Counted from the first letter of the stretch, positions 47,530 to 64,000 are shown. The stretch: DNA of 64,000 nucleotides from Promethearchaeota archaeon (GCA_019057865.1 JAHLWP010000010.1:18163-82162); one strand, 5' to 3'. Notes: a model not told the origin generated them from the sequence alone. Numbers and translations are program-made.

Positions 47530-49308
47530 TTATTCTTTAGTTCTTAATTCACGCCGTAATATTTTACCTACTACAGACTTGGGCAATTCTGGGATAATTT
47601 CTATTATCCTTGGATATTTAAATGCTGAAATATTAGTTTTACACCATTCCATTAGGTCTTCTTTTGAAACTTTATCTTGATATTCAGGTTTAAGCGAGAC
47701 ATAAGCTTTTATATTCTCTTCCACTTCTGGATCTGGAACTCCAACAACGCCAACTTCATTAATAGCTTCATGAAGATACATTAGATCTTCAACTTCTCTT
47801 GGAAATACAGAGTGTCCCTTATATTTAATCATATCTCTTTTACGGTCCTTGATATGTAGGTATCCATCGTGGTCTATACAACCAATATCCGTCGTATAAT
47901 ACCAAGTTCTTCCTTTTGAATCTTTTCTCAATGCATATTCAGTAGCTTCTGGTCTATTTAAATAACCTAGAAATACTTGGGGTCCACAACCACAAATTTC
48001 TCCAATATATTTTGCCTCATCTGGTCCGCAGTCATCACAATTATCATTAGGGCATTGAGGCAAAATTTTTGTGCCATCTTCAGGATCAACAATTTTTATC
48101 AATGTATCTGAAACGGGGAAGCCTACTGTATTTTCCTTATATTTATGGAATGGTGTGACCGTTAATATTGGACTTGTCTCGCTCATTCCAAAACCTTCTA
48201 CGATTAACGCACCAGTGATATCTTCAAATTCCTGTTTCACCTCTAAAGGGAGAGCAGAAGCCCCACTTAAGCATGCAATAAGAGAATCAAGTTTTCCTTT
48301 ATACTTGATGGAACCTGGGTCTTGACTAATCTTATTCCATAAAGTTGGCACACCAGGACCAAAAGCTATGCTTTCTTGTTTAATCATTTTTAATATCTTT
48401 GAAAGCTTAGCAGGTGGTTTTATAAATAAAACTAGTTTATATCCATGATACACTCCAATATTCATTGCTATTGATAATGCAAATTCATGTGCTAAAGGTA
48501 ATACAACAAACATTCCCCCTTTACCTAAAGTTTCTTCTACTTTTGGTAGTTGAGTTCGCACAAAAGTGCTACCCTGTTGCGCGTTTACCACAAAATTAAA
48601 ATGTGACATCATACACCCTTTTGGAAGCCCTGTAGTACCTCCAGTATATATCAAAGTAGAAACGTCTTCTATAGGATTTATATTCACGGCTGGTAACTCT
48701 ATCGGAAGTCCTCTTGTTAAAAAGTCTTGAAATTTATGGAAATTCACATCTCCAACTTTTGTTGGCCATTTTTTCATTCTTGGAACCTTTCCTAAAGCGG
48801 TCCCTAATTTAGCCTTCATTGGGGGCAGATATTCAGCAATTCCAGTCAATATAATATCCTTTAATGTAGGCATTTTACTCAATTCATTGCCATGTAAATA
48901 TTCTTCATAGAGTATATCTAAAATAATCAAAACTTTTCCTTTAGAATCATTTGTTTGATGAACAATTTCTGTAAATCTATTTAATGGAATGATGGGATTA
49001 GCAATAGCACCAATTCGAACTATACCAAAATATGTAATTACAAATTGAGGGACATTAGGTAAATCTATAAGTATAACATCCCCCTTTTTAATTCCCATTC
49101 TTGCGAGGGCTGTAGCAAATTGATCTGCTGCTTCATCTAATTCTTTATATGTCATCTGAAATCCTTCAAAATAAATAGCTTGACTTTCTGGGTACGTCTC
49201 AGCTGTATTTCTTAACATCTGTCCTAAGGATATTTCATCATAGTCAATATGGCGAGGTGTTTCTTTAGGCCATAACTTCATCCAATACTCAGTAATTTCA
49301 TCACTCAT
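47530..49308 (-). CDS. AMP-forming acyl-CoA synthetase (FadD-like) with Cys-rich insertion
   Basis: 'YTGGTTGLPKG' A3 motif, 'GFGMSET', 'TDIG..D.DGYL.I.DR.KD.IK..G' and a C-terminal 'GKILRR'. Confidence 0.85.
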   Translation of the reverse strand: MSDEITEYWMKLWPKETPRHIDYDEISLGQMLRNTAETYPESQAIYFEGFQMTYKELDEAADQFATALARMGIKKGDVILIDLPNVPQFVITYFGIVRIGAIANPIIPLNRFTEIVHQTNDSKGKVLIILDILYEEYLHGNELSKMPTLKDIILTGIAEYLPPMKAKLGTALGKVPRMKKWPTKVGDVNFHKFQDFLTRGLPIELPAVNINPIEDVSTLIYTGGTTGLPKGCMMSHFNFVVNAQQGSTFVRTQLPKVEETLGKGGMFVVLPLAHEFALSIAMNIGVYHGYKLVLFIKPPAKLSKILKMIKQESIAFGPGVPTLWNKISQDPGSIKYKGKLDSLIACLSGASALPLEVKQEFEDITGALIVEGFGMSETSPILTVTPFHKYKENTVGFPVSDTLIKIVDPEDGTKILPQCPNDNCDDCGPDEAKYIGEICGCGPQVFLGYLNRPEATEYALRKDSKGRTWYYTTDIGCIDHDGYLHIKDRKRDMIKYKGHSVFPREVEDLMYLHEAINEVGVVGVPDPEVEENIKAYVSLKPEYQDKVSKEDLMEWCKTNISAFKYPRIIEIIPELPKSVVGKILRRELRTKE

Positions 49309-49427
49309 ATTAAATCAATTTTGAATTTTCTGTAAATATGAATAATATTAATTCAATGAATATTTAAAATTTTAATAAAAATCAGAGTCAATTTCAGAAT
49401 AAATATTAATATAGAACAATACCTAAG

Positions 49428-49865
49428 TTATATTCTCATCTTATATAAATTTTTATCAGGGACATAACTCATCATAATCAAATCATCTCTTATATCCCAG
49501 CCCAAATTAAAATAAAAATCTACAACCTGCTTATTATATTTTTCAATGAATAAATGAACTTTATGTACTCTCATTTTATGAAACCTTGCAATTAATTCAT
49601 CTATCAACATTTTACCATATCTTCTTTTTTGGTAATCAGGTTCTACAGCTAGATGATGGATATATCCTCTTCTTCCATCGAATCCTCCCATTACAACACC
49701 AATGATTTTCTCATTTACCCTACCTATTAGGAAAAGATTTGGATTTCTTTTAAGCATTCTTTGGATTTCCTCTCTCGTATCAGTGGAACCTGCACTAATT
49801 CCTGCCTTTCTCCAAAGATTAATTACATCTTCATATAATTCCATAGAAAATTTTTCGATTTTCAT
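49428..49865 (-). CDS. GNAT N-acetyltransferase
   Basis: 145 aa. Motif A 'PDYQKRRYGKMLIDEL'. Confidence 0.75.
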   Translation of the reverse strand: MKIEKFSMELYEDVINLWRKAGISAGSTDTREEIQRMLKRNPNLFLIGRVNEKIIGVVMGGFDGRRGYIHHLAVEPDYQKRRYGKMLIDELIARFHKMRVHKVHLFIEKYNKQVVDFYFNLGWDIRDDLIMMSYVPDKNLYKMRI

Positions 49866-49913
49866 CTTATTGAGATATTTAACAAACTTTTTAAGTTTTT
49901 TATTAGGAATATT

Positions 49914-51998
49914 TTAGTTATTAAAAGATTCTAGAGATAATCTGGATATATTTTTCCTTACTTCTGTTTTATCATCAACAATCTTTTTTACATATTCTGA
50001 GATTTCTTTTCTTTTATTAATGTCCGAGGAGATTGGTAAGATTACGTCCATAATTCTGTTTCCAATCGTTGCAATTGTTCCTTGAACAAAAGTAATTGCT
50101 TGAATTTGTTTTTGCACAATATCTAAATTCAATAAATATAAAAGGAGATAAGAATCAATAAATTCATTATTTTCTAATACTTTTATCTGGAATATATGAC
50201 TTTGAATTATTATTTTAGTATCTAAGCTAGTTATATAAGCAGTTTTTCCAATCAAATTAGGCCCACCATCCTTAACTAATAGGATGTCTCCTTCTTCTAT
50301 ATTCTGTTTTAGTTTATAATGCTTATAAACTTCTTCACTTGTCTTTTTATATGAATCTAAATTTATTTCCCAATTATTTATTTCACTGGTCCGAATAAAT
50401 GGAATATCACCTAAACCATAAACATGAGATCCTATTTCATCTCCTCGAGGGAGATAACCACCCTTATTAGTATAAATTATTTTTTGGTTTGTTAAATTTT
50501 TAATACTTAAAAGTGTGAAATTTTTATCATCTGCCAGTCTCTTTAAAGTTTTTTCTACACCGATATAATAAATCGGGATGAAAATTTTATCTTTAATCTG
50601 GCTAAATTTAATCTTAAAGATTTTTTGTTCCTTTAAATAGTCAAATTCTTCAGCCTTTCTTATTTTTAAGTGTAAACCTATGAGGTCATCGTTTACTATT
50701 GGATAGCCTGCAGAATCTAATTTTTTACTTCCATCTTTATTCAATTTATATGAAACCTTACCATCTTTATCATGTCCCACATTTTCCACAATTGCAAAAT
50801 CAATTGTATAATCTGCCGGAATATTATTTAATTTTTGAAAGAATAAAATACTTGTTTTATTACATGTATAAGGTTGAAAGGTATTCTGATCTAATGAGAT
50901 AATAGCTAAGATTTTACCATTAGAAGTTAAATATTCCCAGATATAGCGATCTGTAGGATTTCCGAATATCCCTTCTGGTAAGACAATACCTAGCTTTCCT
51001 CCATCTTTAAGGAACTGAATGCACCTTTCAATAAATAAAACTTGGGGTGGTTGTTGTTTTACTAACTTTTCTTGCATTTTCCACTCATCACCAATATTTT
51101 TCCAAATATGACCAAGCTTGTAATCTTTTAAAATTTCTTTATCGTTTATAGGAATTTTAACACCAAACGGAGGATTAGTAAAAATATAATCAAAGAAATT
51201 GTCTTTTATTACTTCTTTTGCTTGAGTTCCATAACTTTTGGGATCCAAAGAATCCTCACAAAAAATATTAGATTTTCCATTACTCAATATTTCTAAGTAT
51301 AATTTACTAATTTTTGCTAAGAAGAGGTCTTTATCAATACCAAATAAATTTGAAATAGAATTAATTCTTTTTTCTTCAGAGCTGATTTTTGACCATAACA
51401 ATTCCTTTACTTCAAGAAGGAACCCGCCATGACCACACCCGGGATCTAGTAGTTTTGCATCAACAGTAGGATCTAAATAATGTACCATGAATTCAATGAT
51501 ATTTGGAGGGGTAAAAAATTGCCCTCCTTCATCTTTTAAAATCTTACTTACAAAAATCTCAAAAGCATCACTTAATATGTCTTTAGAGGATTTTAATAAT
51601 GAAATCTGCTGTAATTCTTTCACAATTAGGTATAAAAGTTCTTTATTTAGGCTAATTTGCTCGTTTTCACTAATTATATCCTTATATTTTTCTTTAACAT
51701 TTTTTTCGAATAGTTTTTGTATTCTTTCAAATAAATCTTCTATTGATTCACCTTTTTTAATACAAAAATCCACAATTTCATTATCATCCTTGCTAATTTC
51801 ATCAGTTAATTTACAAAGTAAGAGATTTATTATTTCTTTAGATCTTGTCCTTGTATCTGTATCAGTTTGTTTTAATTTAGCATATAAATGTTGATTAATT
51901 GAGATAAAGGTCTTCTTTAAATTTGGAGACTTTATTAGATCTTCTTTTTTAATTCCATTGGACCCTATTTCTAAGAAATCGGTAATGTGAACAGGCAT
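49914..51998 (-). CDS. N6-adenine DNA methyltransferase (HsdM-like, gamma class) fused to one HsdS-like target-recognition domain
   Basis: Motif I 'LLDPGCGHGGFL' and motif IV 'FTNPPFG'. The C-terminal ~230 aa ('GDILLVKDGGPNLIGKTAYI...SHIFQIKV...SYLLLYLLN...GTIATIGNRIMDVILPI') matches the type I S-subunit TRD pattern. Confidence 0.8.
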   Translation of the reverse strand: MPVHITDFLEIGSNGIKKEDLIKSPNLKKTFISINQHLYAKLKQTDTDTRTRSKEIINLLLCKLTDEISKDDNEIVDFCIKKGESIEDLFERIQKLFEKNVKEKYKDIISENEQISLNKELLYLIVKELQQISLLKSSKDILSDAFEIFVSKILKDEGGQFFTPPNIIEFMVHYLDPTVDAKLLDPGCGHGGFLLEVKELLWSKISSEEKRINSISNLFGIDKDLFLAKISKLYLEILSNGKSNIFCEDSLDPKSYGTQAKEVIKDNFFDYIFTNPPFGVKIPINDKEILKDYKLGHIWKNIGDEWKMQEKLVKQQPPQVLFIERCIQFLKDGGKLGIVLPEGIFGNPTDRYIWEYLTSNGKILAIISLDQNTFQPYTCNKTSILFFQKLNNIPADYTIDFAIVENVGHDKDGKVSYKLNKDGSKKLDSAGYPIVNDDLIGLHLKIRKAEEFDYLKEQKIFKIKFSQIKDKIFIPIYYIGVEKTLKRLADDKNFTLLSIKNLTNQKIIYTNKGGYLPRGDEIGSHVYGLGDIPFIRTSEINNWEINLDSYKKTSEEVYKHYKLKQNIEEGDILLVKDGGPNLIGKTAYITSLDTKIIIQSHIFQIKVLENNEFIDSYLLLYLLNLDIVQKQIQAITFVQGTIATIGNRIMDVILPISSDINKRKEISEYVKKIVDDKTEVRKNISRLSLESFNN

Positions 51999-52085
51999 AT
52001 TTTTTATATATTAAAAATTACCTATTACTCACTATATTCAATAAGACTATTATTATTTTTTATTAAATGAAAATTAATTTTATAT

Positions 52086-52868
52086 ATGTCTCTAAAAGAT
52101 CTCGATATCGGAGAATACATTGAATTTAATGTAAAGAAGAGATTTGCAATAATAACACTTAATAGGGTTCATAGATCAAATGCATTTACAATTGAGCAAT
52201 TAAGATTCTTAAAAAAAGCAATAGAATATTGTCAAAATTCAGAAAAAATTCGAGGTTTAATCCTAACTGCAAATGGAACAACTTTTAGTACAGGTATGGA
52301 CTTGGATTTTATTGATGGTAGTGATCATAATGCTGTAAAAGACCTTGAGAGAACTGCTGCTGAGATTTGTATGTTATTATTTAATGGAAAGCCTGCGATT
52401 GCGGCTATAAATGGCCGTTGTTTAGGTGAGGGTGTTGTATTTCTTTTATGTTGTGATTATAGGATAAATGTTAAAGACACTTATTTCCAATATCCTGAAA
52501 TCTTTTCTGGTATTTTTCCGGGTACAGGTTGTATAGTATTAATGACTAGAATTATCGGGATTCCTTGGACAAAAAGGATGTTAATGCTAGCTGAAAAGAT
52601 TAGCTCTGAAAAGGCGTTAGAAATTGGGTTAATTGATCAAATAGTTGATTCCAAAGAAGAATTGATGCAAGCTGCTATTGATAAGGCAAAATTTCTCTTT
52701 CCTAAAAATCAAACTGTTCTTAATGCTATTAAATTGTGTTCAAATCATTTACTTGATAAAATTTATCATAAAGCTTACGAATTAGAAAAAGAGGCTTCAG
52801 GGTGGTTTGAATATGATAATAAAAATAAATTCATAAGTGATTTTAGAGAAAAGTTATCATCATTATAA
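52086..52868 (+). CDS. enoyl-CoA hydratase/isomerase (crotonase) family protein, paralog 1
   Basis: 'ITLNR..RSNAF', 'TFSTGMDL', 'AAINGRCLGEG' and 'YPEIFSGIFPGTG' crotonase oxyanion-hole blocks. Only the second canonical Glu (PE) is evident. Confidence 0.8.
   Translation: MSLKDLDIGEYIEFNVKKRFAIITLNRVHRSNAFTIEQLRFLKKAIEYCQNSEKIRGLILTANGTTFSTGMDLDFIDGSDHNAVKDLERTAAEICMLLFNGKPAIAAINGRCLGEGVVFLLCCDYRINVKDTYFQYPEIFSGIFPGTGCIVLMTRIIGIPWTKRMLMLAEKISSEKALEIGLIDQIVDSKEELMQAAIDKAKFLFPKNQTVLNAIKLCSNHLLDKIYHKAYELEKEASGWFEYDNKNKFISDFREKLSSL
52602..52767 (+). repeat. near-identical block shared with 53428..53593
   Basis: By eye there are ~4 mismatches in the first ~134 nt. It encodes SSEKALEIGLIDQIVDS(K/Q)EELMQAAIDKAKFLFPKNQTVLNAIKLCSNHLLDK in both genes. 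Confidence 0.8.
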
Positions 52869-52911
52869 TTTTAATGATATTGAAAAGAAAAAAAAGTGAA
52901 AAAGAATAAAA

Positions 52912-53688
52912 ATGTCATTTGAAGGTTTAGAATTTGGAGAATTTATAGAATTTTCTATAAAAAAAAGATTTGGAATAATTACCCTAAATAGAGCAGAACG
53001 AGCAAATGCTTTAACTACTGAAATGTTAAAAGATTTGAAAAGAGCAATTGAGTATTGTATGGATAATGTAAAAATAAGAGGAATTATATTGACTGGAAAT
53101 GGTTCAAGTTTTACAACGGGAATGGATATTGATTCTATAGATGGAAGTAATCATGCTGCTGTTAAAGAATATGAACAAACCGCTGCCTTTATCGCGAAAT
53201 CAATATATTATGGAAAACCAACCATTTGTGCTATTAATGGTAAGGCAATGGGTGATGGTGTTGCCTATTCTCTATGCTCTGATTATCGAATAGCTGTTAA
53301 AGAAAGTTTTTTTATGATGCCTGAAATAAATTTAGGTATTTTTCCTGGAACTGGAACAATTGTGTTAATGACAAGAGTTATTGGGATACCTTGGACAAAA
53401 AAAATACTTATGTTTGCTGAAAAATTAAGCTCTGAAAAAGCGTTAGAAATTGGATTAATTGATCAAATAGTTGATTCCCAAGAAGAATTGATGCAAGCTG
53501 CTATTGATAAAGCAAAATTTCTCTTTCCTAAAAATCAAACTGTTCTTAATGCTATTAAATTATGTAGTAACCATTTACTTGATAAATCATATAAAGAAGC
53601 ATATGAATTAGAAAAATATGGGTCTGCTTGGTATGAGTATGAAGATAGAGATCAATATATTAAGGATTTTAGAAAGAGACTCTATTAA
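52912..53688 (+). CDS. enoyl-CoA hydratase/isomerase (crotonase) family protein, paralog 2
   Basis: Same blocks as paralog 1: 'ITLNRAERANAL', 'SFTTGMDI', 'AINGKAMGDG' and 'MPEINLGIFPGTG'. Confidence 0.8.
   Translation: MSFEGLEFGEFIEFSIKKRFGIITLNRAERANALTTEMLKDLKRAIEYCMDNVKIRGIILTGNGSSFTTGMDIDSIDGSNHAAVKEYEQTAAFIAKSIYYGKPTICAINGKAMGDGVAYSLCSDYRIAVKESFFMMPEINLGIFPGTGTIVLMTRVIGIPWTKKILMFAEKLSSEKALEIGLIDQIVDSQEELMQAAIDKAKFLFPKNQTVLNAIKLCSNHLLDKSYKEAYELEKYGSAWYEYEDRDQYIKDFRKRLY
53428..53593 (+). repeat. near-identical block shared with 52602..52767
   Basis: See the partner entry. The offset between copies is 826 nt. Confidence 0.8.
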
Positions 53689-53811
53689 AAGAAAGACTTT
53701 TTTGAAGATAATAATTAATCAAAAAAGTCGATAATCTCAAATAAATTAAAACTTTTTAACTAATTCTATCAATATTAATTATTAACAACTTCATTTTATT
53801 AAAAATTAAAG

Positions 53812-55542
53812 GTGGATATTGTAAACATGTCAAGTCCTTATAAAGACCGATTCTGGCGAAAATATTGGGACGAGGGATTAACTGATTTGGATCCTAGTTT
53901 ATGGAAAATTTCATATACGGAAGCCGTGAAGGATACTATTGAAAAGTTTCCTAAGAAAATGGCGTTAGCATATCAAGGCTTAGAAATAAATTATGGTGAA
54001 TTAGATAAATATTCAAATCAATTTGCTAATATGTTGATTAAACAAGGGTTTAAGAAAGGAGATGTTGTAGGAATAAACTTACCAAATATACCTGAATACG
54101 TGATTGCTCTTCTTGGTACTCTTAAAGCAGGATGCATTGTTTCTGGAGTAAGTCCACTCATGTCAGATGTCCAAATGCATTACCAATTAAATGATTTAGG
54201 AGCGGGTGAAAAAAATGTTGCTCTGGTAACTTTAGACGCAATTTTCCAGCATAGATTAAAAAATATAGAATCAAAATTGCCTCAATTGAAGTTAATAGTA
54301 TGGACTAGTGTTATTGGGATTTTTCCAAAAGAACAACAAGATAAAATTCGAGCTGTTAGAGATATTCCTTCAGGAGAGGTCACTCCATTAGAGGGAAAAA
54401 CTGTTCTTGACTTTCATGATGACGTCCTAGCTCAATACTCTACTGACGTACCTAAGGTCAATGTAACTCCTGATGATATAGCATTTATTCAATATACTGG
54501 AGGAACAACAGGACCTCCTAAAGGTGCTATGTTATCACATAGAAACAGTGTTTCGGATTTGTTAATTGTCCAAAAATGGCTTAGTTGGGAAAGTGGAGCA
54601 AAAATTGCACTTTCAGGATTTCCTTTTTTCCATATCGCGGGTACATTTTTCTGTGAAAACTGTATTTATCTAGGATGGGGACAAGTGCTTATACCTGATC
54701 CTAGAGATGCCTTACATATTTGTAATGAGATTAAGAAATATAAACCAACTGCTCTTGTAAATGTGCCTTCACTATTTCAAATTTTGATTAATACACGAAA
54801 ATTTAAGCGATTAGATCATTCAAGTTTAGAATTCTGCATTTCTGCTGCTTCACCATTTCCAGAAGAATCGCAGAAACAATTAGAAGGTATTATAGGTGAA
54901 GGTAAATTATTAGAAGTTTATGGAATGACCGAAACTTCTCCCCTTACTACAATGAATCCTATGAAAGGCAAGAGGAAATTAGGTTCAATAGGATTACCGT
55001 TATTAAACACGGAATTAAAAATAGTTGATCCTGATACTGGAGAAGAAGTTCCCTTAGGGGAACCAGGAGAAATATGGGTAAAAGGCCCTATGGTAATGAA
55101 AGGATATTATAATAAACCTGAAGAAACTAAAAAAGCTATTGACCAAGACGGATATATACGTACTGGAGATGTCGCGATTATGGATGATAGAGGTTACCTT
55201 AGAATTGTAGATCGTACAAAAGATATGATAATAGTAGGGGGTTATAAGTTGTTTTCTACTAAAGTTGAAGATATATTATCTAAACATCCTGCTATTGGAA
55301 TGATTGCTCTAATCGGGTTGCCAAATCCAGATAGGCCGGGTTCCGAAATTGTGAAAGCTTATATACAAATAGATCCTGAGTACGAATTTGATGGAAATGA
55401 AGATGCATTAAAAGAAAATATAATAAAATTCGCTAAAGAGAATTGTTCCCCTTATGAAGTTCCTAAAGTAGTTGAATTTTCAAAAGAGCTCCCTCTTACT
55501 GTGGTAGGAAAGATTGATAAAAAGTTATTACGCAAAGAGTAA
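53812..55542 (+). CDS. AMP-forming acyl-CoA synthetase (FadD-like)
   Basis: 'YTGGTTGPPKG', 'YGMTET', 'GEIWVKGP.VMKGYY', 'TGD....D..GYL.IVDR.KD' and 'GKIDKK'. GTG start at 53812, or ATG at 53827. Confidence 0.85.
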   Translation: MDIVNMSSPYKDRFWRKYWDEGLTDLDPSLWKISYTEAVKDTIEKFPKKMALAYQGLEINYGELDKYSNQFANMLIKQGFKKGDVVGINLPNIPEYVIALLGTLKAGCIVSGVSPLMSDVQMHYQLNDLGAGEKNVALVTLDAIFQHRLKNIESKLPQLKLIVWTSVIGIFPKEQQDKIRAVRDIPSGEVTPLEGKTVLDFHDDVLAQYSTDVPKVNVTPDDIAFIQYTGGTTGPPKGAMLSHRNSVSDLLIVQKWLSWESGAKIALSGFPFFHIAGTFFCENCIYLGWGQVLIPDPRDALHICNEIKKYKPTALVNVPSLFQILINTRKFKRLDHSSLEFCISAASPFPEESQKQLEGIIGEGKLLEVYGMTETSPLTTMNPMKGKRKLGSIGLPLLNTELKIVDPDTGEEVPLGEPGEIWVKGPMVMKGYYNKPEETKKAIDQDGYIRTGDVAIMDDRGYLRIVDRTKDMIIVGGYKLFSTKVEDILSKHPAIGMIALIGLPNPDRPGSEIVKAYIQIDPEYEFDGNEDALKENIIKFAKENCSPYEVPKVVEFSKELPLTVVGKIDKKLLRKE

Positions 55543-55816
55543 AAATAAATTTAAAATTCATTTTTTTTATCTTTTTAATGATTCAAGATTTAATTTGAAA
55601 TAATAAGAGTATTTCACACTATAATTCATTGAATCATTATATTATCCTAATATTTTCAAAGATATTATAAAATTACAAAATCTTAAAAACTGAATATGGT
55701 TTATAACACATAATTATCTATAGATAATTGGCATTTAAAACACATATAAGGAATACAAAAGATTAGAAAGCATAAAAAAGAAAGGTATAAACCAAGCATA
55801 GAAAAGGTGAGAATTA

Positions 55817-56101
55817 ATGGCTAATGATGATGACTCAAAAGTTTTTATTGGTAAGAAGAGGTCAATGAATTATGTAATGGCTGCTATGGTTGTTCTAAAT
55901 GAAAAACCAGTGAGATTACTAGCTCGAGGACGATCTATATCCCGAGCAGTTGATGTAGCAGAAATTGTTATTAATAATTTTATTAAAGGAAGTACTTATG
56001 GAGAAATCATAATTGACACTGAGACATTTACTAATGATGATGGGACTTCTAGCAACGTCTCATCAATCGACATTGAAATCTTACCACCAGAAAAGAAGTA
56101 A
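55817..56101 (+). CDS. albA: Alba DNA/RNA-binding chromatin protein
   Basis: 94 aa. 'VFIGKKRSMNYVMAAMVVLNE...LLARGRSISRAVDVAEIV' is the Alba core. GGTGA lies 6 nt upstream of the ATG. Confidence 0.85.
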   Translation: MANDDDSKVFIGKKRSMNYVMAAMVVLNEKPVRLLARGRSISRAVDVAEIVINNFIKGSTYGEIIIDTETFTNDDGTSSNVSSIDIEILPPEKK

Positions 56102-56149
56102 TAATTAGTTAAAAATCTTCAGGAGAAAATCAGGAGACTTTCTCGCATC

Positions 56150-56157
56150 TTTTTTTT
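56150..56157 (+). terminator. oligo-T tract after albA
   Basis: A T8 run lies ~50 nt after the stop. Confidence is low because T-runs are common in this AT-rich sequence. Confidence 0.3.
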
Positions 56158-56180
56158 ATTTTATTTTGTAGAAGGATTAA

Positions 56181-57041
56181 TTACTTAAGGACAAATTGAA
56201 ATTCATCTACGTCAATTACAGAGCGATAACCAACTTTTTGATAAATACTGTTCGACGTGGGATTCATTAAGTCTTAAATAAGAAACAAAATCGATTTCCC
56301 TCTTCTAATATGTTTTTACTTAATTTAGCTACACACTCAGTTGCATATCCCCTTCTTCTTAATTCTGGTGGAGTATAAACAAAGTTCACTAAATTTCTAT
56401 TAGGTGTTTTTCCTGCTTTTTGTACCATTGAAACTGGTTTATTATTATCTAATAATAAAAAAATTTTTCCCTTTCCTAATTGCCTTCGCTATTTTTTTTA
56501 TTGATTGTTCTATCATTTCGTTGGTTCTTTCTTGAAATGCTTCTATCAAAAACTCTTTTGCCCATTGCAGAATTTTATTCTCATATAACCTTGTGGCTTT
56601 AATAAATTCATTTTTACCTAAAGTTTCTTCTGCTACACGTTCTAATTTATAAATTCTTTCATTTGTAACTAATTCAGCGCTAATCCCTTTCTTTTTACAC
56701 CATTGCTTAATAAACTTTTTTGCTCCTTCTTTAAAACCCAAAACACCAGGTAATTTAATATTCTTTTTAATAAGTACATCAATTAAAACATCAATAGTTT
56801 GTAAATTATCCGTATACGATATAATTTGGTTATGGGGAGGAGTTCTTATAGAAACTAATTTTATCTTGTCATTCTCAGTAATAGAAGTAAAAATTGGTTT
56901 ATTATCTCCATATCTATATAAGTCTTCCTTTAGAGAGTTAAGAATCGAGAAAAGCAGATTATTTTCTGCTTCATACTTTAATAAAAATGGAAATACCATC
57001 TCATTAAATCGGTTGAGATCTTCATAAAATTCTACTTTCAT
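56181..57041 (-). pseudogene. GNAT-family acetyltransferase disrupted by a frameshift and an in-frame TAA
   Basis: The 198-aa N-terminal ORF ends in an A/T homopolymer region. The next frame continues '...PVSMVQKAGKTPNRNLVNFVYTPPELRRRGYATECVAKLSKNILEEGKSILFLI*DLMNPTSNSIYQKVGYRSVIDVDEFQFVLK*', which contains GNAT motif A and the C-terminal 'NPTSNSIYQKVGY' block. Confidence 0.6.
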
Positions 57042-57185
57042 AAATACACTAGATAATTATTTTGATTTAAATTCTCTTAATCTTCTTTTAATTAACCATT
57101 CTATTTAATCAGTATAAAAAAGGAGAGTATTTTGAACTGTCATTATATTAATAAAATAAGTTTAGACATTAATAAATTATAAATA

Positions 57186-57419
57186 TTAAGATCTGCAAAA
57201 TAATGTTAAACTGGACGGATTCGAAAGTGAATAAAATATGATTAGAGAAAGAAAATTGACTATTTTCCTTATAATTATACTTTTACGTGCATAAGTTAAA
57301 TTTTTCTCTTGATAGCCAAGGTCTAAGGCAACTAGAGTTGAAACTAAATCTACCAGATTTAAGATTAAAAATATTCCAAATAAGATGTAATTAATAATTT
57401 TTAGTCTCATGCATATCAA
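57186..57419 (-). CDS. small membrane protein (possibly DUF5658-like)
   Basis: Two or three hydrophobic helices. 'LNLVDLVSTLVALDLGYQE' resembles the DUF5658 'D..lT..al..G..E' pattern. The call is weak. Confidence 0.3.
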   Translation of the reverse strand: MICMRLKIINYILFGIFLILNLVDLVSTLVALDLGYQEKNLTYARKSIIIRKIVNFLSLIIFYSLSNPSSLTLFCRS

Positions 57420-57738
57420 TTAAATAAATCTTTTTAAAAATATTAAAATATATAAGATTTCTGATTCTTTTTTAGTCATGATAAGGATTTAGAGTCTGTC
57501 AATTTGTAGCAAGCAAATAATTCTTCAACATTATTATTCAATTATATTCAATAGAAAACCTGAAGAAGTATAAAAGTAGTAAACGAGCAGATAAAACTTA
57601 TTAATAGAAAAAGTGCAAGTATACCTTTTATACCCTCATTTGTACTATATCTCAGAAAAACTAAACAGAGAAGTAATGTGGTACCATAAAAAAAAGAAGT
57701 TATTACACAAAAAGGATTTAACCAAGAATAACATTCAC

Positions 57739-59259
57739 TTAAAGCACTAAATGATACATCAGATATCGTTCAAATAAAAAAGTAAGTAAATAATATGGAC
57801 CTAAGCAAAACAGATACCATGCTCCTAGCACAATACAAAGAGTTAAAATGTACAAAATTATTGTCTTGATTAATTTCACTATTGAAGGAAGGACTTGTCT
57901 TAATTTAAAGGTAAATGAGAAAGCAAATTTTCGAACTTTTCGCTTGAAAGAAATTTTCTTTTGTGGCATAAGAGACTGAAGAGATACAGATTCTGGAGAA
58001 AATCCATCAGGATTTGTTAAATATATTATACCACTCTTAGTTATTATAATGTATTTAAAGGCTCTGCCATTATTATCTCTAAAAGAAGTGGATAAAAAAC
58101 ATCTGTTAATGAGTTCCGAAATTTTTTGTTTTATTTGCTTGTTATATTGTTTCTTATGATACTGTTTAGCTCTTTTAGATAGCTGATTAATCTCTCCTAA
58201 AAATTTTTTTGCTTGTGGAATAGAATCATATATAAAATCAGATCTTATTGCTTTTTCTGGCTGATTGTAAATAGCTCTTAATATATCAGTATTTTCTATT
58301 GTCGGTAATGGGATTATCTTTTGAGGTTTATAAGGTCTCTTTTTGTGAGAAGGGCGTGACTTTTTATAATATATACGTTTTGAAGGTCTTTTATACGATA
58401 CAAAATTCGGATAATAAGTTCCCTTATAGGCAGCATTTGTATCTTCTAAATTAACTACTTTACCTTGCTTTTTATTCTCAGATCTAAGCTGAGTGAAAGT
58501 CGAGTTAATAAAAAACATTTTTGAGACCTGATCTTCATGATGACATAATGTATGATGTTCATTGTTATTATTGAATCCTGAAATGAGATTTTCCTTTGTA
58601 AAATATAATCTCAAAATATTATTATATGAAGCACAAAAAATCAATACTTGTAAAAATTTAATCTCACCTTCAAGATAACGTCCATGATTTTTATTCTCAT
58701 CAATATAATTGAATATCATAAAATTTAAACCATCATATATAAAATCTCCTTCTTTTGGCAATTCAAAGGGCATTTTCTCTTCAAATTTTTTAATCATTTC
58801 ATGATACAATGAAAAGGTAGGTTCTCGGTCAAAAAAATAATGTGTATGAAAATATTCAATAAATTTTCGAATATTTAAGAGATATTCTTTAGGTATTTCA
58901 ATTAATTTGTCCCAGAATCCATCTTCTAATGCCTCATACCACACTTTTCTACCTTTAGTAGTAAATGTAAAAATAGGATACTCAATTTCATGTTGTCTGT
59001 GCCTTCTTCCTTTATCAGGTGGCTTTAATAAATCAATAGTTCTATTTCCTAATTGGATACGAGATAGATTAAAACAAGTCTGGAAGATAACGTGTTTTCT
59101 TTTATACTCTTTAAAAAGTAATCCTATGTTTTTTTTTTTAAAATCTAAAAACCCTTTCCAGCAAAAAAAGTAGAGATCAGGAGCGAAATTAAATGTAATG
59201 AGTTTTAATATTTCCTTGTTTCGTAAATTATCTAATTTATAAATTCTATCATCTATCAT
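57739..59259 (-). CDS. hypothetical 506-aa protein: globular N-terminal half, K/R/P-rich linker, C-terminal TM anchor
   Basis: No family recognised. It has the basic linker 'YKRPSKRIYYKKSRPSHKKRPYKPQK' and a C-terminal TM 'IILYILTLCIVLGAWYLFCLGPYYLLTFLF'. It starts 29 nt after the upstream gene. Confidence 0.55.
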   Translation of the reverse strand: MIDDRIYKLDNLRNKEILKLITFNFAPDLYFFCWKGFLDFKKKNIGLLFKEYKRKHVIFQTCFNLSRIQLGNRTIDLLKPPDKGRRHRQHEIEYPIFTFTTKGRKVWYEALEDGFWDKLIEIPKEYLLNIRKFIEYFHTHYFFDREPTFSLYHEMIKKFEEKMPFELPKEGDFIYDGLNFMIFNYIDENKNHGRYLEGEIKFLQVLIFCASYNNILRLYFTKENLISGFNNNNEHHTLCHHEDQVSKMFFINSTFTQLRSENKKQGKVVNLEDTNAAYKGTYYPNFVSYKRPSKRIYYKKSRPSHKKRPYKPQKIIPLPTIENTDILRAIYNQPEKAIRSDFIYDSIPQAKKFLGEINQLSKRAKQYHKKQYNKQIKQKISELINRCFLSTSFRDNNGRAFKYIIITKSGIIYLTNPDGFSPESVSLQSLMPQKKISFKRKVRKFAFSFTFKLRQVLPSIVKLIKTIILYILTLCIVLGAWYLFCLGPYYLLTFLFERYLMYHLVL

Positions 59260-59288
59260 TCTTATTTTTACTATTCAATATTAATTAT

Positions 59289-60329
59289 TTAGTCTAAATT
59301 TATTTTAATTTGAGAACTATCTTTGTAATAATAATAAATCTCAGAGAGATCTTCACACACAGTAATGAGTGAAATGTTTCTATACCGAAACTCATCACAG
59401 ATCAAATCCTCAAACATCCTTTCAAGCTGGATATTAAAAAGATATTCTTTATCTCCATAGACTCCTTCTAACTGTTCCTTGGTAAGAAAATAATTCTCCT
59501 CTTCAATCCTTCTAAAATAGTCTCTGTTCATGATAAAATTTTTCCTATAGTCTTCATGAGGAGGTTTTTTTAATATCTTATCAGCGTCCTCTAAAACAAT
59601 AATGCCACGAAGGACATCTGAATTCCTAATGGGTATAAGATTTTTAATGGTTTGAAGTAGAAAAGTCACTAAAACTTTCTGGTAAAAAAGATCACATCCA
59701 GATAAATCAATACATATTGCCTTACCCTCACTCCATAATTTTAACCATTCGGGTACTTCCAGCAGAATCTCTAATGTTCTTTCTAAAACAGGATCATTTT
59801 CGAATAAATGAATTGCTTTTTCAATGCTTCTTATATTACTCTCTGTAAAATTATCTGAATATGGATGCTCGATTAGATTGGTCTTTAAATCCTCCAGTAA
59901 ATCTACTAAGGAGCTAGGAAATTCTCCCGTCTTATAATGGTGTAGTAAACATCCCATAACAATTGTCATCTCAGGATGAAATCCAAAAATAGCGTTAATA
60001 TATTCTTCAAATTGCTCTCTATTACGTGCATCAAATTGCTCTTTGATGAAATAGGGAATTACTAAATCAGAATCTCCATACTTATACACTTTGTCAAGAT
60101 GATACAGATACAAATCCTCATTCGATTTTAGCTTGATAAATAAAACTCCAATATCAGGTAATCTTACGTATAACTGGTTTAAAATGTAAGATAGTGTCGC
60201 ATTCCTCTCTGCTCGGTTCTTTCCTGTAATTAAGAGGTTGTACATAAAATATCTAAGAGGAATGTTTGAAATCTCGCCTCCATTTTCATAATCCCATACC
60301 ATCATACCAAGATCTATTTTTATTGACAT
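59289..60329 (-). CDS. HerA/FtsK-superfamily (DUF87-like) protein with degenerate Walker A
   Basis: 'NLLITGKNRAERNATLSYILNQL' sits where HerA-like ATPases have hhhhG-x-T-G-S-G-K-S-x-T. 'ICIDLSG' and 'RGIIVLEDADKIL' resemble the DUF87 'vidLs' and Walker-B (hhhhDEAH) segments. This is a pattern-level inference. Confidence 0.45.
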   Translation of the reverse strand: MSIKIDLGMMVWDYENGGEISNIPLRYFMYNLLITGKNRAERNATLSYILNQLYVRLPDIGVLFIKLKSNEDLYLYHLDKVYKYGDSDLVIPYFIKEQFDARNREQFEEYINAIFGFHPEMTIVMGCLLHHYKTGEFPSSLVDLLEDLKTNLIEHPYSDNFTESNIRSIEKAIHLFENDPVLERTLEILLEVPEWLKLWSEGKAICIDLSGCDLFYQKVLVTFLLQTIKNLIPIRNSDVLRGIIVLEDADKILKKPPHEDYRKNFIMNRDYFRRIEEENYFLTKEQLEGVYGDKEYLFNIQLERMFEDLICDEFRYRNISLITVCEDLSEIYYYYKDSSQIKINLD

Positions 60330-60452
60330 GATTTTCGACCTTATATACTAAACTTTCGTGTCTTTAATTACTGTATTATTATTTATATTTAAAGAAAAAT
60401 TAAATTCGGAATATTAAATTGAAAAATTAAAACTTCTATCATTCTTGATGGT

Positions 60453-60743
60453 TCACTTCCTTAAAAAATCATTAATCTCATCATATATCTTGACTAATTC
60501 GTTAAAGAACTCTTCATAAAAATAATCATCCTCTCTTACATTCTCTTGTAAAAATTTGAAGGTCTTTTCTATGGTTGTTTTCAACACTTCTACTTTAATA
60601 CTGTTTACTTTATTCATTTCTAACAAAATATCGCACATTCGATTAATGACATCTCGATAACTAGGAAATTCAATACCAAATTTCAGCTTGACTTGGTCTA
60701 TTTTATCCAATAGTTCCTCATTAACTGGGATTGCCGTTCTCAA
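60453..60743 (-). CDS. ribbon-helix-helix-like small protein (the track ORF starts at 60779; probable TTG start at 60743)
   Basis: From the TTG the protein starts 'MRTAIPVNEELLDKIDQVKLKFG', an RHH-like strand-helix. AGAGGAG (60752..60758, minus sense) lies 8 nt upstream of the TTG and directly after the upstream stop. Confidence 0.45.
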   Translation of the reverse strand: MRTAIPVNEELLDKIDQVKLKFGIEFPSYRDVINRMCDILLEMNKVNSIKVEVLKTTIEKTFKFLQENVREDDYFYEEFFNELVKIYDEINDFLRK

Positions 60744-60759
60744 TTTCTTAACTCCTCTT

Positions 60760-61056
60760 TTAATTGGGCAAGAATTCATTCTTTAAATTCCTGAGAGCAA
60801 TTTGCTTATCTTTCTCAGATAATTGGTCAAATTCTTCTCCAATTTTACTGTATTCATAAGGTGGGAGAGCTGTAAAGTACGAAATAACAAGTAATATACC
60901 ATTTTTAACAATTTCTCTGTCTTCTTTTGTGTCCAGAATCTTCATTAGCTTTAGTAATATCTGACTCACTGAAATTATAATCGACTTGCGATTCAAACTC
61001 CTACTCTCAATATATTCAATGATTTTCATATAGCAATTTACATCAAAATGATCCAT
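60760..61056 (-). CDS. hypothetical small alpha-helical protein
   Basis: The 98-aa first gene of the minus-strand operon. No motif recognised. Confidence 0.45.
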   Translation of the reverse strand: MDHFDVNCYMKIIEYIESRSLNRKSIIISVSQILLKLMKILDTKEDREIVKNGILLVISYFTALPPYEYSKIGEEFDQLSEKDKQIALRNLKNEFLPN

Positions 61057-61222
61057 TATTATCTTTCTTCACCTACTATTGAAAACACCAAGATTTTTGC
61101 ATATTTTTAAATGTTAAAAATCTGGGATCGTTTCATTCTCATTATGATTCTGTTCATTATTATAGATTTATTATAAATATTTAAATGTTATGATTTCATT
61201 ATAAATATAGAACGATTTTGAT

Positions 61223-61420
61223 GTGATACTAAAAGTGAACGGACACCCAACTAAATACTTGTTTTATGAATCCAATAAAAAAAGCATCGTTACTGTACCA
61301 CGAGCGATAATTGATGCTGCTAATCTAAATTGGAATCATCAAGACCAAATAAATATAATCGTAAAAACTATAGATGAACAACCAGGCTTATTTCTATTTA
61401 AAAAGAAAAATAATAAATAA
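61223..61420 (+). CDS. AbrB/SpoVT/MazE-like swapped-hairpin DNA-binding protein
   Basis: 65 aa with a GTG start. 'SIVTVPRAIIDAANLNWNHQDQINIIV' matches the 'vtIPk.ir..lgl..gd.v.i' AbrB-type pattern. Confidence 0.5.
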   Translation: MILKVNGHPTKYLFYESNKKSIVTVPRAIIDAANLNWNHQDQINIIVKTIDEQPGLFLFKKKNNK

Positions 61421-61450
61421 TAATATTGCCTAAATTTATGATGATGTTAT

Positions 61451-62869
61451 TTGAAGGAAATGGATGAGCTTGTTCAATTTATAAAGGCTGATATAGACTT
61501 AATAAATAAAGGAATACAAAAAGATAATCCATTGCTTTTGGATAATATTGAAAAAAATAAACATTTGTTATTTATAGAAAAAGATTTTATGATAGATTTA
61601 CTCAATAAATATTGCTTTCAATCTTTACCACTGAACTATAATTATTATAAAGGCTACGTTCCTAAGGATCGGTTGGAATTATTTGAGAGTCTTTTTACTT
61701 CAGGAATAAAGAAATCCGAAATCTATAATGTTAGTTATGTAAATGGAGGTACATTTATATATTCAATGGAACAGCTTTATATTAGATTGTTCTTAACAAT
61801 CTACATTGAATCTCTAATCACATCTTTAGAAATAAAGGTTATAATTAAAAAATTATTGGATAACTGGAAATTTTTTTTGGAAGAACAAAAACTACCAGTT
61901 GAAATTTTAACATTTTTGCCTGAAGTTTTTATTGAAAAAGAAGCTGTAAAATTACCCAATAACTTTGAGATCAAAACTATTTCAAGTTTTCTACATTTTG
62001 AAAAAACAGGATCTGAATTAAGTAAAGGATTTGAAGTTTTTGGACCAATGGGCTCTTTTCTTATTTTTAAAACAGAAATTTCATGTAATCATAATTTTAT
62101 AAAAGATCATCAGAAACTTAGCAATATTGATCAAAAAATACTTATTGAAGAATGGAAAAAAAAAATGAAATCTCTTAAAGAATTAACATTTAGTCTACTT
62201 CTAGGAGGTATTAATTTTACTAATGAATCTACAGTACTATCATTGCCTTGGTGGTTTGGAGATCAAGAACTAAAATTTAAGAGAAAAAATATAAGTATAG
62301 GGGCTATAACAATTACAGATAAATATTTAAAACTCGTAAATGAAATCTATGAAATGGTATTAAAATTGGATATTATAAATGATAAGGAACTTGAGTTAGC
62401 ACTTTTCAAATATGGTTACCTTCTTAAAAAAAAATTTTTATATGATATGATTCTAGATGAATTTATAATCCTCGAATCTATTTTTTCAAAAGGAGGGACT
62501 TCAGAAGTCTCATACCGTCTCTCATCTAATTTAGCCTTTTTTCTTGCCGAAGACATTGAATATTTTAAGGAAATTTATAATTGTATAAAGGATCTCTATA
62601 GCATTAGAAATAAAATTGCACACGGAGAGGATTGGACAAAAGGATTATCAAAAGAAAAATATAGAAAGCATTTAGGAATTGATGATCCTAATGCTAAAGC
62701 TGAAACAATAGCTAAAGGGATATATTCTAAATTGAGATATTTTATTGATGAAGTGCTGAAAAAAATAATAGAAATGAAGTATGAAAGGATTGAGGCTAGT
62801 AAAGACCCAAACATAATGAAGGATTTTAAAGGTACCTATTTTATAGAAAATAGTAATATGTATAAATAA
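61451..62869 (+). CDS. HEPN-domain protein (Rx4H motif; possibly Apea-like) with large uncharacterised N-terminal region
   Basis: C-terminal 'EFIILESIFSKGGTSEVSYRLSSNLAFFLAEDIEYFKEIYNCIKDLYSIRNKIAHGE' has a conserved Glu helix and an R-N-K-I-A-H (Rx4H) motif. TTG start at 61451, or ATG at 61460. Confidence 0.6.
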   Translation: MKEMDELVQFIKADIDLINKGIQKDNPLLLDNIEKNKHLLFIEKDFMIDLLNKYCFQSLPLNYNYYKGYVPKDRLELFESLFTSGIKKSEIYNVSYVNGGTFIYSMEQLYIRLFLTIYIESLITSLEIKVIIKKLLDNWKFFLEEQKLPVEILTFLPEVFIEKEAVKLPNNFEIKTISSFLHFEKTGSELSKGFEVFGPMGSFLIFKTEISCNHNFIKDHQKLSNIDQKILIEEWKKKMKSLKELTFSLLLGGINFTNESTVLSLPWWFGDQELKFKRKNISIGAITITDKYLKLVNEIYEMVLKLDIINDKELELALFKYGYLLKKKFLYDMILDEFIILESIFSKGGTSEVSYRLSSNLAFFLAEDIEYFKEIYNCIKDLYSIRNKIAHGEDWTKGLSKEKYRKHLGIDDPNAKAETIAKGIYSKLRYFIDEVLKKIIEMKYERIEASKDPNIMKDFKGTYFIENSNMYK

Positions 62870-63115
62870 CAGAAATAAAGATAATGTAAATGAATCCAGA
62901 AGCATTTAATTGCTAGGAAAGGTAAGAAATGGTCTTAATTAATGATGAAGTAATGAAAAATCCCAAAAAACAGTTTGAAAAATATATGAAAACCTATGAG
63001 ACCGTTAAAAATTAATTTAAGGCTGTTGTTTCACCAAATTTAATTCATCACCAAAATTTATAAAAACTTTAATCAATTTTTAAAATATTCAAAACCAAGA
63101 GACTTAAGGATATAA

Positions 63116-64000
63116 ATGTCTGAACAAAAAATAATTCAAGGAAAATTTTGCAAAACTAAAACAATTGGAGAAGGTAAATCGGGTAAAATTTTTGAAGTAT
63201 TAGTCCTAAGAGACATTATATACGCAAATAAAGGGGATAAATTAGCTATAAAAGAATATAAAGCTTGGGTCTTAGAAGAGCCATTCCAAACAATTAGAAT
63301 TGCAAGAGAATGGACCACTGGTTCGAAAATAATATCTAATCATTTAGTAAAGACATATGAAATAATCGAAGAACAAGGAAATACCTATTTAGTGATGGAA
63401 TTATTGGACGGTATTTCCTTATCCAAATATTTAGAAAATAATCCAATACTGAGTTTCCCAGAACTTATTGATATTTGTTCAGGAATTTTAGAAGGTTTAC
63501 ACCAACTTCATAAAAATAATTTAATTCACAGGGATATTAAACCAGCCAATATAATGATAACAAGTAGAGGACCAGTTATTACGGATTTTGGTGTAATTAA
63601 AGATCTGAATGAATCAAATACAATTACAGGGAGCAATCAATTTTTAGGTACAATAAAATACGCAGCTCCAGAATTATTATTTGGTAAGAGTAAAGATGAT
63701 AAATCAATAAATATCTATAGTTTTGGAATGATATTATATGAATTAATTTTTAAGAAACCGTATTTTGATAAAAGCATGTATTGGAGCGAAATTATAATCC
63801 TAAAAAAAAACCCTATTACATTTCCCTTATTTTTAAATTCAGAAATATGGCGGCGTTTTGGATTTCGAGAATCACTTTTTCTATCATCAATTTTACAAGG
63901 CAGTTTAACAAAACCAGACTTACGTTTAACTAGCGAACAATTATATACAGCATTCAGTAATAATATTTGGAAAAATTATTTTTTACATTATGTGAATTCG
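63116..64000 (+). CDS. Hanks-type Ser/Thr protein kinase (3' end beyond the window)
   Basis: My own translation shows 'GEGKSGKIFEV' (Gly loop), 'LAIKEY' (VAIK Lys), 'HRDIKPANIM' (catalytic loop), 'TDFG' and 'YAAPE'. The frame stays open for 295 codons to the window edge. It is absent from the ORF track because no stop is reached. Confidence 0.85.
   Translation, partial: MSEQKIIQGKFCKTKTIGEGKSGKIFEVLVLRDIIYANKGDKLAIKEYKAWVLEEPFQTIRIAREWTTGSKIISNHLVKTYEIIEEQGNTYLVMELLDGISLSKYLENNPILSFPELIDICSGILEGLHQLHKNNLIHRDIKPANIMITSRGPVITDFGVIKDLNESNTITGSNQFLGTIKYAAPELLFGKSKDDKSINIYSFGMILYELIFKKPYFDKSMYWSEIIILKKNPITFPLFLNSEIWRRFGFRESLFLSSILQGSLTKPDLRLTSEQLYTAFSNNIWKNYFLHYVNS

Follow-up and report, generated by a model that had tools for sequence, protein, structure and literature searches.

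The stretch of DNA analysed here, referred to as the window, comprises 64,000 nucleotides from a Promethearchaeota archaeon (GCA_019057865.1, JAHLWP010000010.1:18163-82162), and the locus under study occupies its minus strand between positions 57739 and 61056; the open reading frames (ORFs) of the locus are numbered in transcription order (Table 1). A first-pass annotation had described the locus as a four-gene operon encoding a small helical protein, a ribbon-helix-helix (RHH)-like protein, a HerA-like protein of 346 amino acids with a dead P-loop, and a membrane-anchored protein of 506 amino acids. The four minus-strand ORFs, a restart at a TTG codon led by a Shine-Dalgarno (SD) sequence, a gap of 29 nt and the quoted motifs were all found in the sequence, but the conserved unit is smaller: it is an accessory cassette of Lokiarchaeia (Promethearchaeota) that comprises three genes at most, and these in one subclade only. 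At its core is the 346-amino acid protein, which belongs to the FtsK/HerA superfamily by fold and by homology and which fails the catalytic features of that superfamily.

Table 1. Features of the minus-strand locus and its divergent neighbour, in window coordinates.
Feature	Position	Strand	Basis or remark
Gene 1 (s1), 98 aa	60760-61056	minus	ORF; fold not recognised
Gene 2 (s2), 96 aa from TTG	60453-60743	minus	Alternative ATG at 60779 gives 108 aa (60453-60779)
AT-rich spacer, 123 nt, with TATA-like sequence	60330-60452	minus	~89% identical to L005
346-aa HerA/FtsK-fold pseudo-ATPase, core of the unit	59289-60329	minus	Homologues, AF2, Foldseek, dN/dS
Degenerate Walker A, residues 36-43 (G-K-N-R-A-E-R-N)	60201-60224	minus	Family alignment
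Walker-B-like strand, residues 243-250 (IIVLEDAD)	59580-59603	minus	Family alignment
506-aa strain-specific ORFan	57739-59259	minus	Outside the conserved unit
65-aa AbrB/SpoVT-like gene, divergent, context	61223-61420	plus	Homologous ORF by the trio in L033

Gene 1 ends with the TAA at 60762-60760, which is directly followed by the SD sequence AAGAGGAG at 60759-60752 and then by the TTG start of s2 at 60743-60741; the same TTG is the called start of s2 (96 amino acids) in the closest relative, designated L005, one of about 55 related loci collected from representative genomes and metagenomes. The genes for the 346- and 506-amino acid proteins lie 29 nt apart (59260-59288), and the lengths of these two ORFs are far above chance for DNA of 28% GC. 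The packing of the genes is therefore as tight as had been described at the first and last junctions, but not at the second, where the spacer splits s2 from the 346-amino acid gene. Because this spacer is AT-rich, contains a TATA-like sequence and is conserved with L005, it probably holds a promoter specific to the 346-amino acid gene; many of the related loci carry this gene without the small ones.

The 346-amino acid protein found no match in Pfam, PADLOC, PHROG or NCBIfam. Its homologues form 47 clusters, all of about 346 residues (346 +/- 7 for full-length copies), that are 52-84% identical, with a median pairwise identity of 54% inside the family. The source names on all 47 clusters read 'hypothetical' or 'uncharacterized', and the named sources are Promethearchaeota (Loki) metagenome-assembled genomes (MAGs), marine-sediment metagenomes and one MAG labelled Odinarchaeota. 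A profile built from the family alignment gave no matches to PDB sequences, and it was fold comparison alone that succeeded. The AlphaFold2 (AF2) model made with the family alignment has a predicted local distance difference test score (pLDDT) of 89 and a predicted template modelling score (pTM) of 0.89. With this model, a Foldseek search of the PDB placed HerA at the top (9x1m and 4d2i; E 5e-9 to 1e-8) and also returned SIR2-HerA, DUF4297-HerA, Deinococcus HerA and TrwB, the overall E values ranging from 5e-9 to 1e-5 at a template modelling score (TM-score) of ~0.5 and a probability of 1.00; in BFVD, HerA-like phage proteins were matched with an E of 3e-9. The model and these matches identify the RecA-like/ASCE core of the FtsK/HerA superfamily. 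The resemblance to HerA, which the first-pass annotation had drawn from the sequence and had proposed to abandon should it disappear in structure-based comparison, was thus confirmed by that comparison.

The catalytic motifs of the superfamily are not kept within this fold. In place of the Walker A motif GxxxxGK[ST], the window protein has G36-KNRA-E41-R42-N43, and the family as a whole has G-x4-E-[KR]-[STNIC], with four departures among 27 members; Glu stands at the position of the second Gly in 23 of the 27, and Arg replaces Lys in 19. The Walker B motif hhhhDE has likewise been lost, the window protein having IIVL-E247-D248 within the string 'IIVLEDAD' and the family having ED, EG, QD, SS or DG, such that the pair is not invariant. 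A further residue, R312 of 'EFRYRN', a candidate for the conserved trans-acting arginine (finger or sensor), is aligned to an Arg (R597 of 'EFRSKG') that is invariant in the longer paralogues described below, and it varies among R, N, Q and I across the short family; a second R or K two residues past this position is mostly retained, as judged from the alignment. The string 'ICIDLSG', which had been cited as part of the HerA-like layout, is present, and the short-family alignment contains 31 invariant columns, all of them outside the catalytic motifs.

The degeneration of the P-loop is seen most directly by contrast with active paralogues. A search of 1.84e9 representative proteins with the profile of the 346-amino acid family recovered proteins of 630-1200 amino acids, which match through their residues ~290-550 to profile positions ~4-257 with E values of 1e-45 to 1e-10. 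By BLASTP, the window protein is 26-32% identical to these long forms over ~255-315 residues (E 1e-38 to 1e-40), and an hhalign comparison of the short and long family alignments gave a probability of 100% (E 2e-44, 317 columns). The blocks (I/V)PYF, PxW(L/F)..W..G and xxDLSxC are common to both forms. In the long form, Walker A is an invariant G-x4-G-K-T of the type GxxGxGKT (GQPGAGKT, GQMGTGKT), Walker B carries an invariant D-E (VIDEAH; hhhhDEAH), and the Arg of 'EFRSKG' is invariant as well. Relative to it, the short form is without the N-terminal domain of ~290 residues and without the extension at the C-terminus, and it carries an insertion of ~30 residues after Walker B. The long form is Asgard-specific, being found in Promethearchaeota, one Thorarchaeota MAG and one 'Odin' MAG, and it matches HerA at the level of sequence profiles (E 1e-5) and Pfam DUF87 weakly. 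The 346-amino acid protein was thereby shown to be a paralogue, reduced in length, of a larger HerA-like ATPase that is membrane-associated, and its family arose by duplication and truncation of that ATPase.

The long paralogue also points to an active membrane system that is equally uncharacterised. Its genes lie in an unannotated operon (L016:1925-4968; L019:9226-16393; L020:2-6207; L021:10001-12781) that encodes a polytopic HExxH membrane protein of ~250 amino acids with weak similarity to Peptidase_M50B, the ATPase of ~666 amino acids, and an acidic-repeat protein of 1000-1500 amino acids. At ~666 amino acids, the ATPase consists of the N-terminal domain and a HerA-like core with intact Walker A and B motifs; in forms of 926-1042 amino acids, a region of multiple transmembrane (TM) segments is fused at its N-terminus. 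Compared with the syntenic L005, L021 has an insertion of ~11 kb between MazG and NrdD, and the operon sits within it. The idea that s1, s2, the 506-amino acid protein or a downstream partner found in other loci (the clade-B partner, below) had originated as pieces of a split long form was examined and rejected; hhalign comparisons with the long form gave P values of 0.1-0.8, indicating that they are unrelated.

The loss of catalytic motifs raises the question of whether the short family is a functionless, decaying remnant of the long ATPase, that is, a family of pseudogenes. Many copies are truncated or frameshifted, and the gene in L005 itself has a premature stop at codon 329. Set against this, full-length copies keep to a narrow range of lengths across the 47 clusters, the invariant columns persist, the substitution of Glu for Gly is itself conserved, the AF2 model is confident, and the ratio of nonsynonymous to synonymous substitution rates (dN/dS) of the gene relative to L005 is 0.20. 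Such purifying selection largely refutes the remnant explanation, which is accordingly regarded as very improbable. Given the invariant columns, the dN/dS value and the conserved Glu, the family represents a pseudo-enzyme and not a pseudogene.

The extent of the conserved unit was delimited by comparison with L005. A blastn search of the whole window against that locus returned a single match of 88.5% identity, covering window positions 59293-61042 (1.75 kb) and thus running from the stop codon of the 346-amino acid gene to 14 nt inside s1. The neighbours of the cassette in L005 are wholly different, with a gene for a Ras-like GTPase downstream and housekeeping genes around. Relative to L005, the dN/dS values of s1 and s2 are 0.16 and 0.11, respectively, and their conservation under such constraint identifies both as real genes. 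Homologues of s1, which share a conserved C-terminal ...L(R/K)xEFL(P/L)N, were found 394-466 nt upstream of the 346-amino acid gene in L001, L005, L006, L010 and L033, and homologues of s2 in L001, L005, L006, L010, L029, L033, L040 and L049. No family match to s1 was obtained in any library searched.

A neighbour-joining tree of the full-length copies from these loci separated two clades, A and B. In clade A, one or both small genes occupy the same positions in eight loci (the window, L001, L005, L006, L010, L029, L033 and L040), and they have been lost from L003, L022 and L032. In clade B, all 11 loci with enough upstream sequence are solo, with no small genes.

The 506-amino acid gene proved to lie outside this unit. 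The architecture attributed to its product was upheld: an N-terminal globular part is followed by a linker rich in K, R and P (residues 271-330; 23% K+R and 12% P) and a C-terminal TM anchor, the latter corresponding to the single strongly hydrophobic stretch at residues 456-492. Among 5.8e9 proteins, only the protein itself and its own strain variants were recovered, and it has no match in Pfam, PADLOC, PHROG or NCBIfam. The motif 'YIDENKNHGRYLEGEIK', from which a PD-(D/E)xK-type nuclease site had been suggested, is present in the protein, but with neither a family match nor homologues there is nothing else behind that suggestion. Moreover, a sister contig (L064, GCA_019058095.1; L064:5260-21047) that is colinear with window positions 48216-64000 and 96.9% identical overall is ~99.7% identical in the region of the locus, with 0-0.7% substitutions across the cassette genes; in its copy of the 506-amino acid gene, codon 349 has been changed to a stop, which leaves ORFs of 348 and 140 amino acids, with loss of the TM anchor. 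The gene downstream of the 346-amino acid gene is different in every related locus. The proposal of a conserved four-gene operon was consequently abandoned. With the protein an ORFan, its gene interrupted in the sister strain and the nuclease site suggested by a motif, the 506-amino acid gene is treated as a recent, strain-specific and dispensable neighbour. The case serves as a caution against reading a multi-gene 'system' from one locus, the supposed effector here being a strain-specific ORFan.

Four clade-B loci hold an unannotated downstream gene for a protein of 450-470 amino acids in which a charged linker joins an N-terminal globular part to a TM anchor at the C-terminus and for which no Pfam match was found (L007:4028-5437, L043:7024-8373, L027:1121-1729 and L045:2769-3263, with fragments in L054). 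The gap between it and the pseudo-ATPase gene is 4-13 nt in three of the four loci and 215 nt in L043, and the proteins of L007 and L043 are related by Smith-Waterman comparison (z 12.4). The 506-amino acid protein has the same layout without detectable homology: BLASTP, Smith-Waterman alignment with shuffles (z 0.5), hidden Markov model searches and hhalign (P 0.13) all spoke against its being a homologue of the clade-B partner, and it is at most a non-homologous analogue.

The second protein had been called RHH-like, and this assignment is weakly supported. Seven aligned s2 homologues show a short extended segment followed by two helices separated by a loop, the first helix containing 'L.K(I/L)D', an arrangement that is RHH-like by eye. 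An hhalign comparison of s2 with a hand-assembled set of eleven RHH domains aligned them in register (P 0.0013, probability 19%), the s1 control giving a P of 0.23. A single-sequence AF2 model with a pLDDT of 57 has a coil at residues 1-8 and helices at 9-21, 29-46, 51-68 and 73-95, which is compatible with an RHH fold. On the other side, no Pfam RHH match was found among the seven members at E<=5, no RHH protein occurred among the PDB profile matches, and a Foldseek search with the low-confidence single-sequence model came back empty. An RHH-type identity of s2 is thus plausible but unproven.

Comparison with characterised members of the superfamily places the 346-amino acid protein apart from each of them. 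With archaeal HerA, the helicase of the HerA-NurA system for end resection (4d2i, 9x1m), it shares the ASCE/RecA-like core and a helical insertion, with a query-based TM-score (TMq) of 0.50-0.53. Unlike HerA, however, it is 346 and not ~500 amino acids long, is 12-14% identical in sequence, has no Pfam DUF87 match and has lost Walker A and B; the mere ~30 residues and two short strands that precede the P-loop strand leave no space for an N-terminal HAS barrel, and none of its loci has a nurA, mre11 or rad50 neighbour. The lowest-rmsd (root-mean-square deviation) structural match is to TrwB/VirD4 (1e9s, 1gki; 5.8-6 A, target-based TM-score (TMt) 0.43-0.46). On plasmid R388, the gene for the RHH protein TrwA precedes that of the coupling ATPase, and the long paralogue resembles type IV coupling proteins in being membrane-associated. 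The 346-amino acid protein differs from TrwB/VirD4 in the degenerate P-loop and in being without an N-terminal hydrophobic segment (judged by eye from sequence and model); no relaxase or type IV secretion system genes occur in any short-form locus, and a parallel with TrwA would require s2 to be an RHH protein. The long Asgard ATPase (P0058, P0057, P0194) is a true homologue from the same phylum, but it is distinguished by intact Walker motifs, extra domains and the HExxH/acidic-repeat operon.

The HerA subunits of SIR2-HerA (Nezha) and DUF4297-HerA (8wod, 8uae, 8zir) have the same fold and occupy Foldseek ranks 4-18, and the concept advanced in the first-pass annotation, a HerA ring scaffolding an adjacent effector, is the one known from these systems. 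They differ in that no SIR2 or DUF4297 domain is encoded in the window or the related loci, PADLOC returned nothing, and the adjacent gene is not conserved. The 346-amino acid protein is therefore not a bona fide HerA, not part of a Nezha-type system and not a coupling protein.

The same resemblance underlies the suggestion that the locus is a defence or mobile-element module in which an RHH regulator would control an inactive HerA-like scaffold, and the scaffold would assemble or activate a membrane-tethered effector (the 506-amino acid protein in the window and other membrane proteins elsewhere) to bring about abortive infection or restriction in the manner of SIR2-HerA and DUF4297-HerA. Besides the structural matches, some of the neighbours fit: AbrB-like and HEPN-like genes in the window, NACHT and DUF4238 genes in L003, and BrxC/BrxD-like and DUF87 genes in L001. 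Four clade-B loci (L007, L027, L043 and L045) share an operonic, tail-anchored membrane protein encoded downstream, and the family is patchy, multi-copy and rich in truncated copies. Other loci lie in different surroundings, L006 with a giant protein of 3147 amino acids and beta-helix proteins, L007 with molybdopterin genes, and L005 amid housekeeping genes and small GTPases, the housekeeping setting being one that argues against the defence module. When the four proteins of the locus and two neighbours were compared with Pfam, PADLOC, PHROGs and NCBIfam, nothing rose above noise; for PADLOC, these six proteins had no match at E<=1, one noise match aside. The supposed effector is the ORFan interrupted in the sister strain and has no match to a nuclease or other catalytic family, and downstream genes at other loci are non-homologous to one another (Ras-like GTPase, beta-helix, protease-like and 150-amino acid proteins). 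As far as is known, the HerA proteins of characterised HerA defence systems are active ATPases, whereas the catalytic motifs are lost here. No test returned a positive result for the proposal, there being neither a PADLOC match nor a conserved effector, nor any member of the family on IMG/VR viral contigs, and a defence module of this kind is considered unlikely.

The family is accessory, as seen from its patchy distribution, multiple copies, frequent truncation and variable contexts, and such a high-turnover lifestyle is compatible with a role in defence or on a mobile element. When each GTDB species was represented by one genome in a pattern scan, in which exact peptide patterns were needed and absences are therefore soft, the family was located in only six MAGs; one of them, ABR03, has two full copies, and Loki_b32 has two fragments. 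Loci L008 and L010 are two copies from one MAG that are ~90% identical by eye. At least 11 copies among ~50 loci are internally truncated or frameshifted (L011/L044, L012, L013, L014/L055, L015, L045, L050, L053, L054, L058, L059, L062). One recurrent type, P0042, is an N-terminally truncated version of 226 amino acids (family residues 121-346) that occurs on 13 contigs; at L011:10031-10711 and L044:3207-3914 it is flanked by genes common to both loci, and instead of debris it may represent a short isoform that is stable.

These features could also be those of a cassette that is selfish or mobile, or that is carried as cargo by an Asgard element so far unrecognised, and that spreads and decays independently of its context; it might, for example, be an addiction-type unit, or the long ATPase of the host might have given rise to it as a decoy or an anti-system. 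That homology between the window and L005 ends exactly at the ends of the cassette, with no other match, is what such a cassette would leave behind, and the paired copies of L008 and L010, the truncated copies and the ~11-kb insertion bearing the long form in L021 point the same way. So does the divergence from the sister contig: from 57.5 kb to the window end at 64 kb the two are at least 99.6% identical, with no 500-nt bin below 99.4%, and the flanking sequence diverges by up to 14%. This last pattern is a mosaic, however, in which the bins between 48 and 57.5 kb diverge by anything from 0 to 14%; patchy over the whole 16 kb, it may reflect ordinary recombination between strains or MAG chimerism. 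No integrase or transposase gene was found at the cassette and no tRNA gene in the window that might have served as a target; the cassette ends have no convincing terminal or inverted repeats, only short AT-rich ones. Neither the short nor the long form has relatives among 2.9 million IMG/VR viral contigs, and the family tree is deeply diverged (44-60% identity), which does not suggest recent spread. Mobility as the explanation of the cassette is thus held to be improbable.

The reading preferred here is that the 346-amino acid protein serves as a non-catalytic HerA-like scaffold or regulator within a three-gene accessory cassette. To this package as a whole a probability of roughly 0.55 is assigned, most of which is contributed by the identity and evolution of the protein; the specific mode of action, taken alone, is doubtful. 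Pseudo-ATPases derived from ring motors are usually regulators or adaptors of an active machine, and in the type VII proteins EccC and EssC, impaired FtsK-like domains act as regulatory or substrate-binding units beside an active domain. By analogy, the 346-amino acid protein would work without ATP binding or hydrolysis, forming an oligomer that serves as scaffold or adaptor; it would do so alone, or it would dock onto the ring of the long paralogue or compete with that ring. The analogy has its differences, as the degenerate domains of EccC/EssC are fused with the active one in a defined secretion system, whereas the protein here is encoded by a separate gene with no evident link to a secretion apparatus. 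If RHH-like, s2 would set the transcription of the cassette or tether the complex to DNA, and the 346-amino acid gene, with a promoter of its own, might function without the small genes too, as in clade B.

Several observations weigh against the scaffold or regulator proposal. The loss of nucleotide binding is predicted from motifs, and oligomerisation and partner binding are proposed by analogy. The short and long forms are adjacent nowhere, the long form being absent from the window and from every short-form locus, and the two co-occur, at separate loci, in three MAGs only (ACFFDF, ACW98D and CAZALK01). The small proteins match no recognisable family and the RHH call is weak. About one-fifth of the loci are truncated and one MAG has two copies, a pattern no less in keeping with a selfish or defence-type gene than with a regulator. 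Finally, genes downstream on the same strand frequently code for membrane-anchored proteins, and for this reason the idea of a membrane partner put forward in the first-pass annotation may hold some truth.

A bolder reading would be a new Asgard-specific system, made up of the short pseudo-HerA family with small partners of DNA-binding type in one subclade and tail-anchored membrane partners in the other, in which a nucleotide-independent HerA-like ring couples nucleic-acid recognition to fast-evolving membrane effectors, or else regulates or inhibits a membrane-embedded HerA-like translocase; this is considered a long shot. If true, the sensor or scaffold version would constitute a new defence architecture, and in the regulator version the target would be an undescribed translocase encoded with HExxH membrane proteins and giant acidic-repeat proteins in Loki- and Thor-type MAGs.

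Asgard genomes are rich in unannotated lineage-specific genes, and for the 346-amino acid family, one such example, a fold and an origin have now been assigned and a non-catalytic status is likely; its members are probably pseudoenzymes. Literature searches brought up no report on an Asgard family of inactivated HerA-like proteins. The account of the short pseudo-ATPase family in terms of fold and evolution is clean and new, and it is without a functional anchor.

The cassette of the window is flanked by metabolic genes on one side, including those for AMP-ligases, enoyl-CoA hydratases, an Eco57I-like methylase, a GNAT protein and Alba, and by the AbrB-like and HEPN-like pair on the other. The methylase gene (49914-51998, minus strand) encodes an Eco57I-type N6 DNA methylase of 694 amino acids (Pfam N6_Mtase 1.7e-33, Eco57I 3.8e-9) amid fatty-acid-type genes (AMP-ligases, two enoyl-CoA hydratases, thiolase and NMO). 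At 56267-57041 on the minus strand, a GNAT/FR47-type acetyltransferase gene is split into ORFs of 198 and 53 amino acids, with single-base indels at 56471 and 56274, within a segment that is ~10% divergent from the sister contig, where a single gene encodes 286 amino acids; the split marks either a pseudogene or a fault in the assembly. Past the end of the window, the sister contig continues with genes for a protein kinase and for a TaqI_C protein.

The intergenic region of 166 nt between s1 and the divergent AbrB-like gene contains TTTAAATGTTA twice, at 61106-61116 and 61180-61190, 74 nt apart; the two copies may serve as operators or as paired promoter elements. The AbrB-like label of the 65-amino acid product comes from a reading of its sequence, Pfam having given no match. 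A homologous divergent ORF of 57 amino acids upstream of s1 in L033 indicates that the AbrB-like gene recurs by the trio. In the window, this gene is followed after 30 nt by one for a protein of 472 amino acids with an R-N-x3-H HEPN-like motif ('SIRNKIAHGE') and weak DUF6548 and PHROG matches only (61223-62869 for the two genes, plus strand), an arrangement that resembles a toxin-antitoxin pair. At the same relative position, L001 has a different small gene and a protein of 372 amino acids with 'KRNWYQH', and another small divergent gene is common to L001 and L006.

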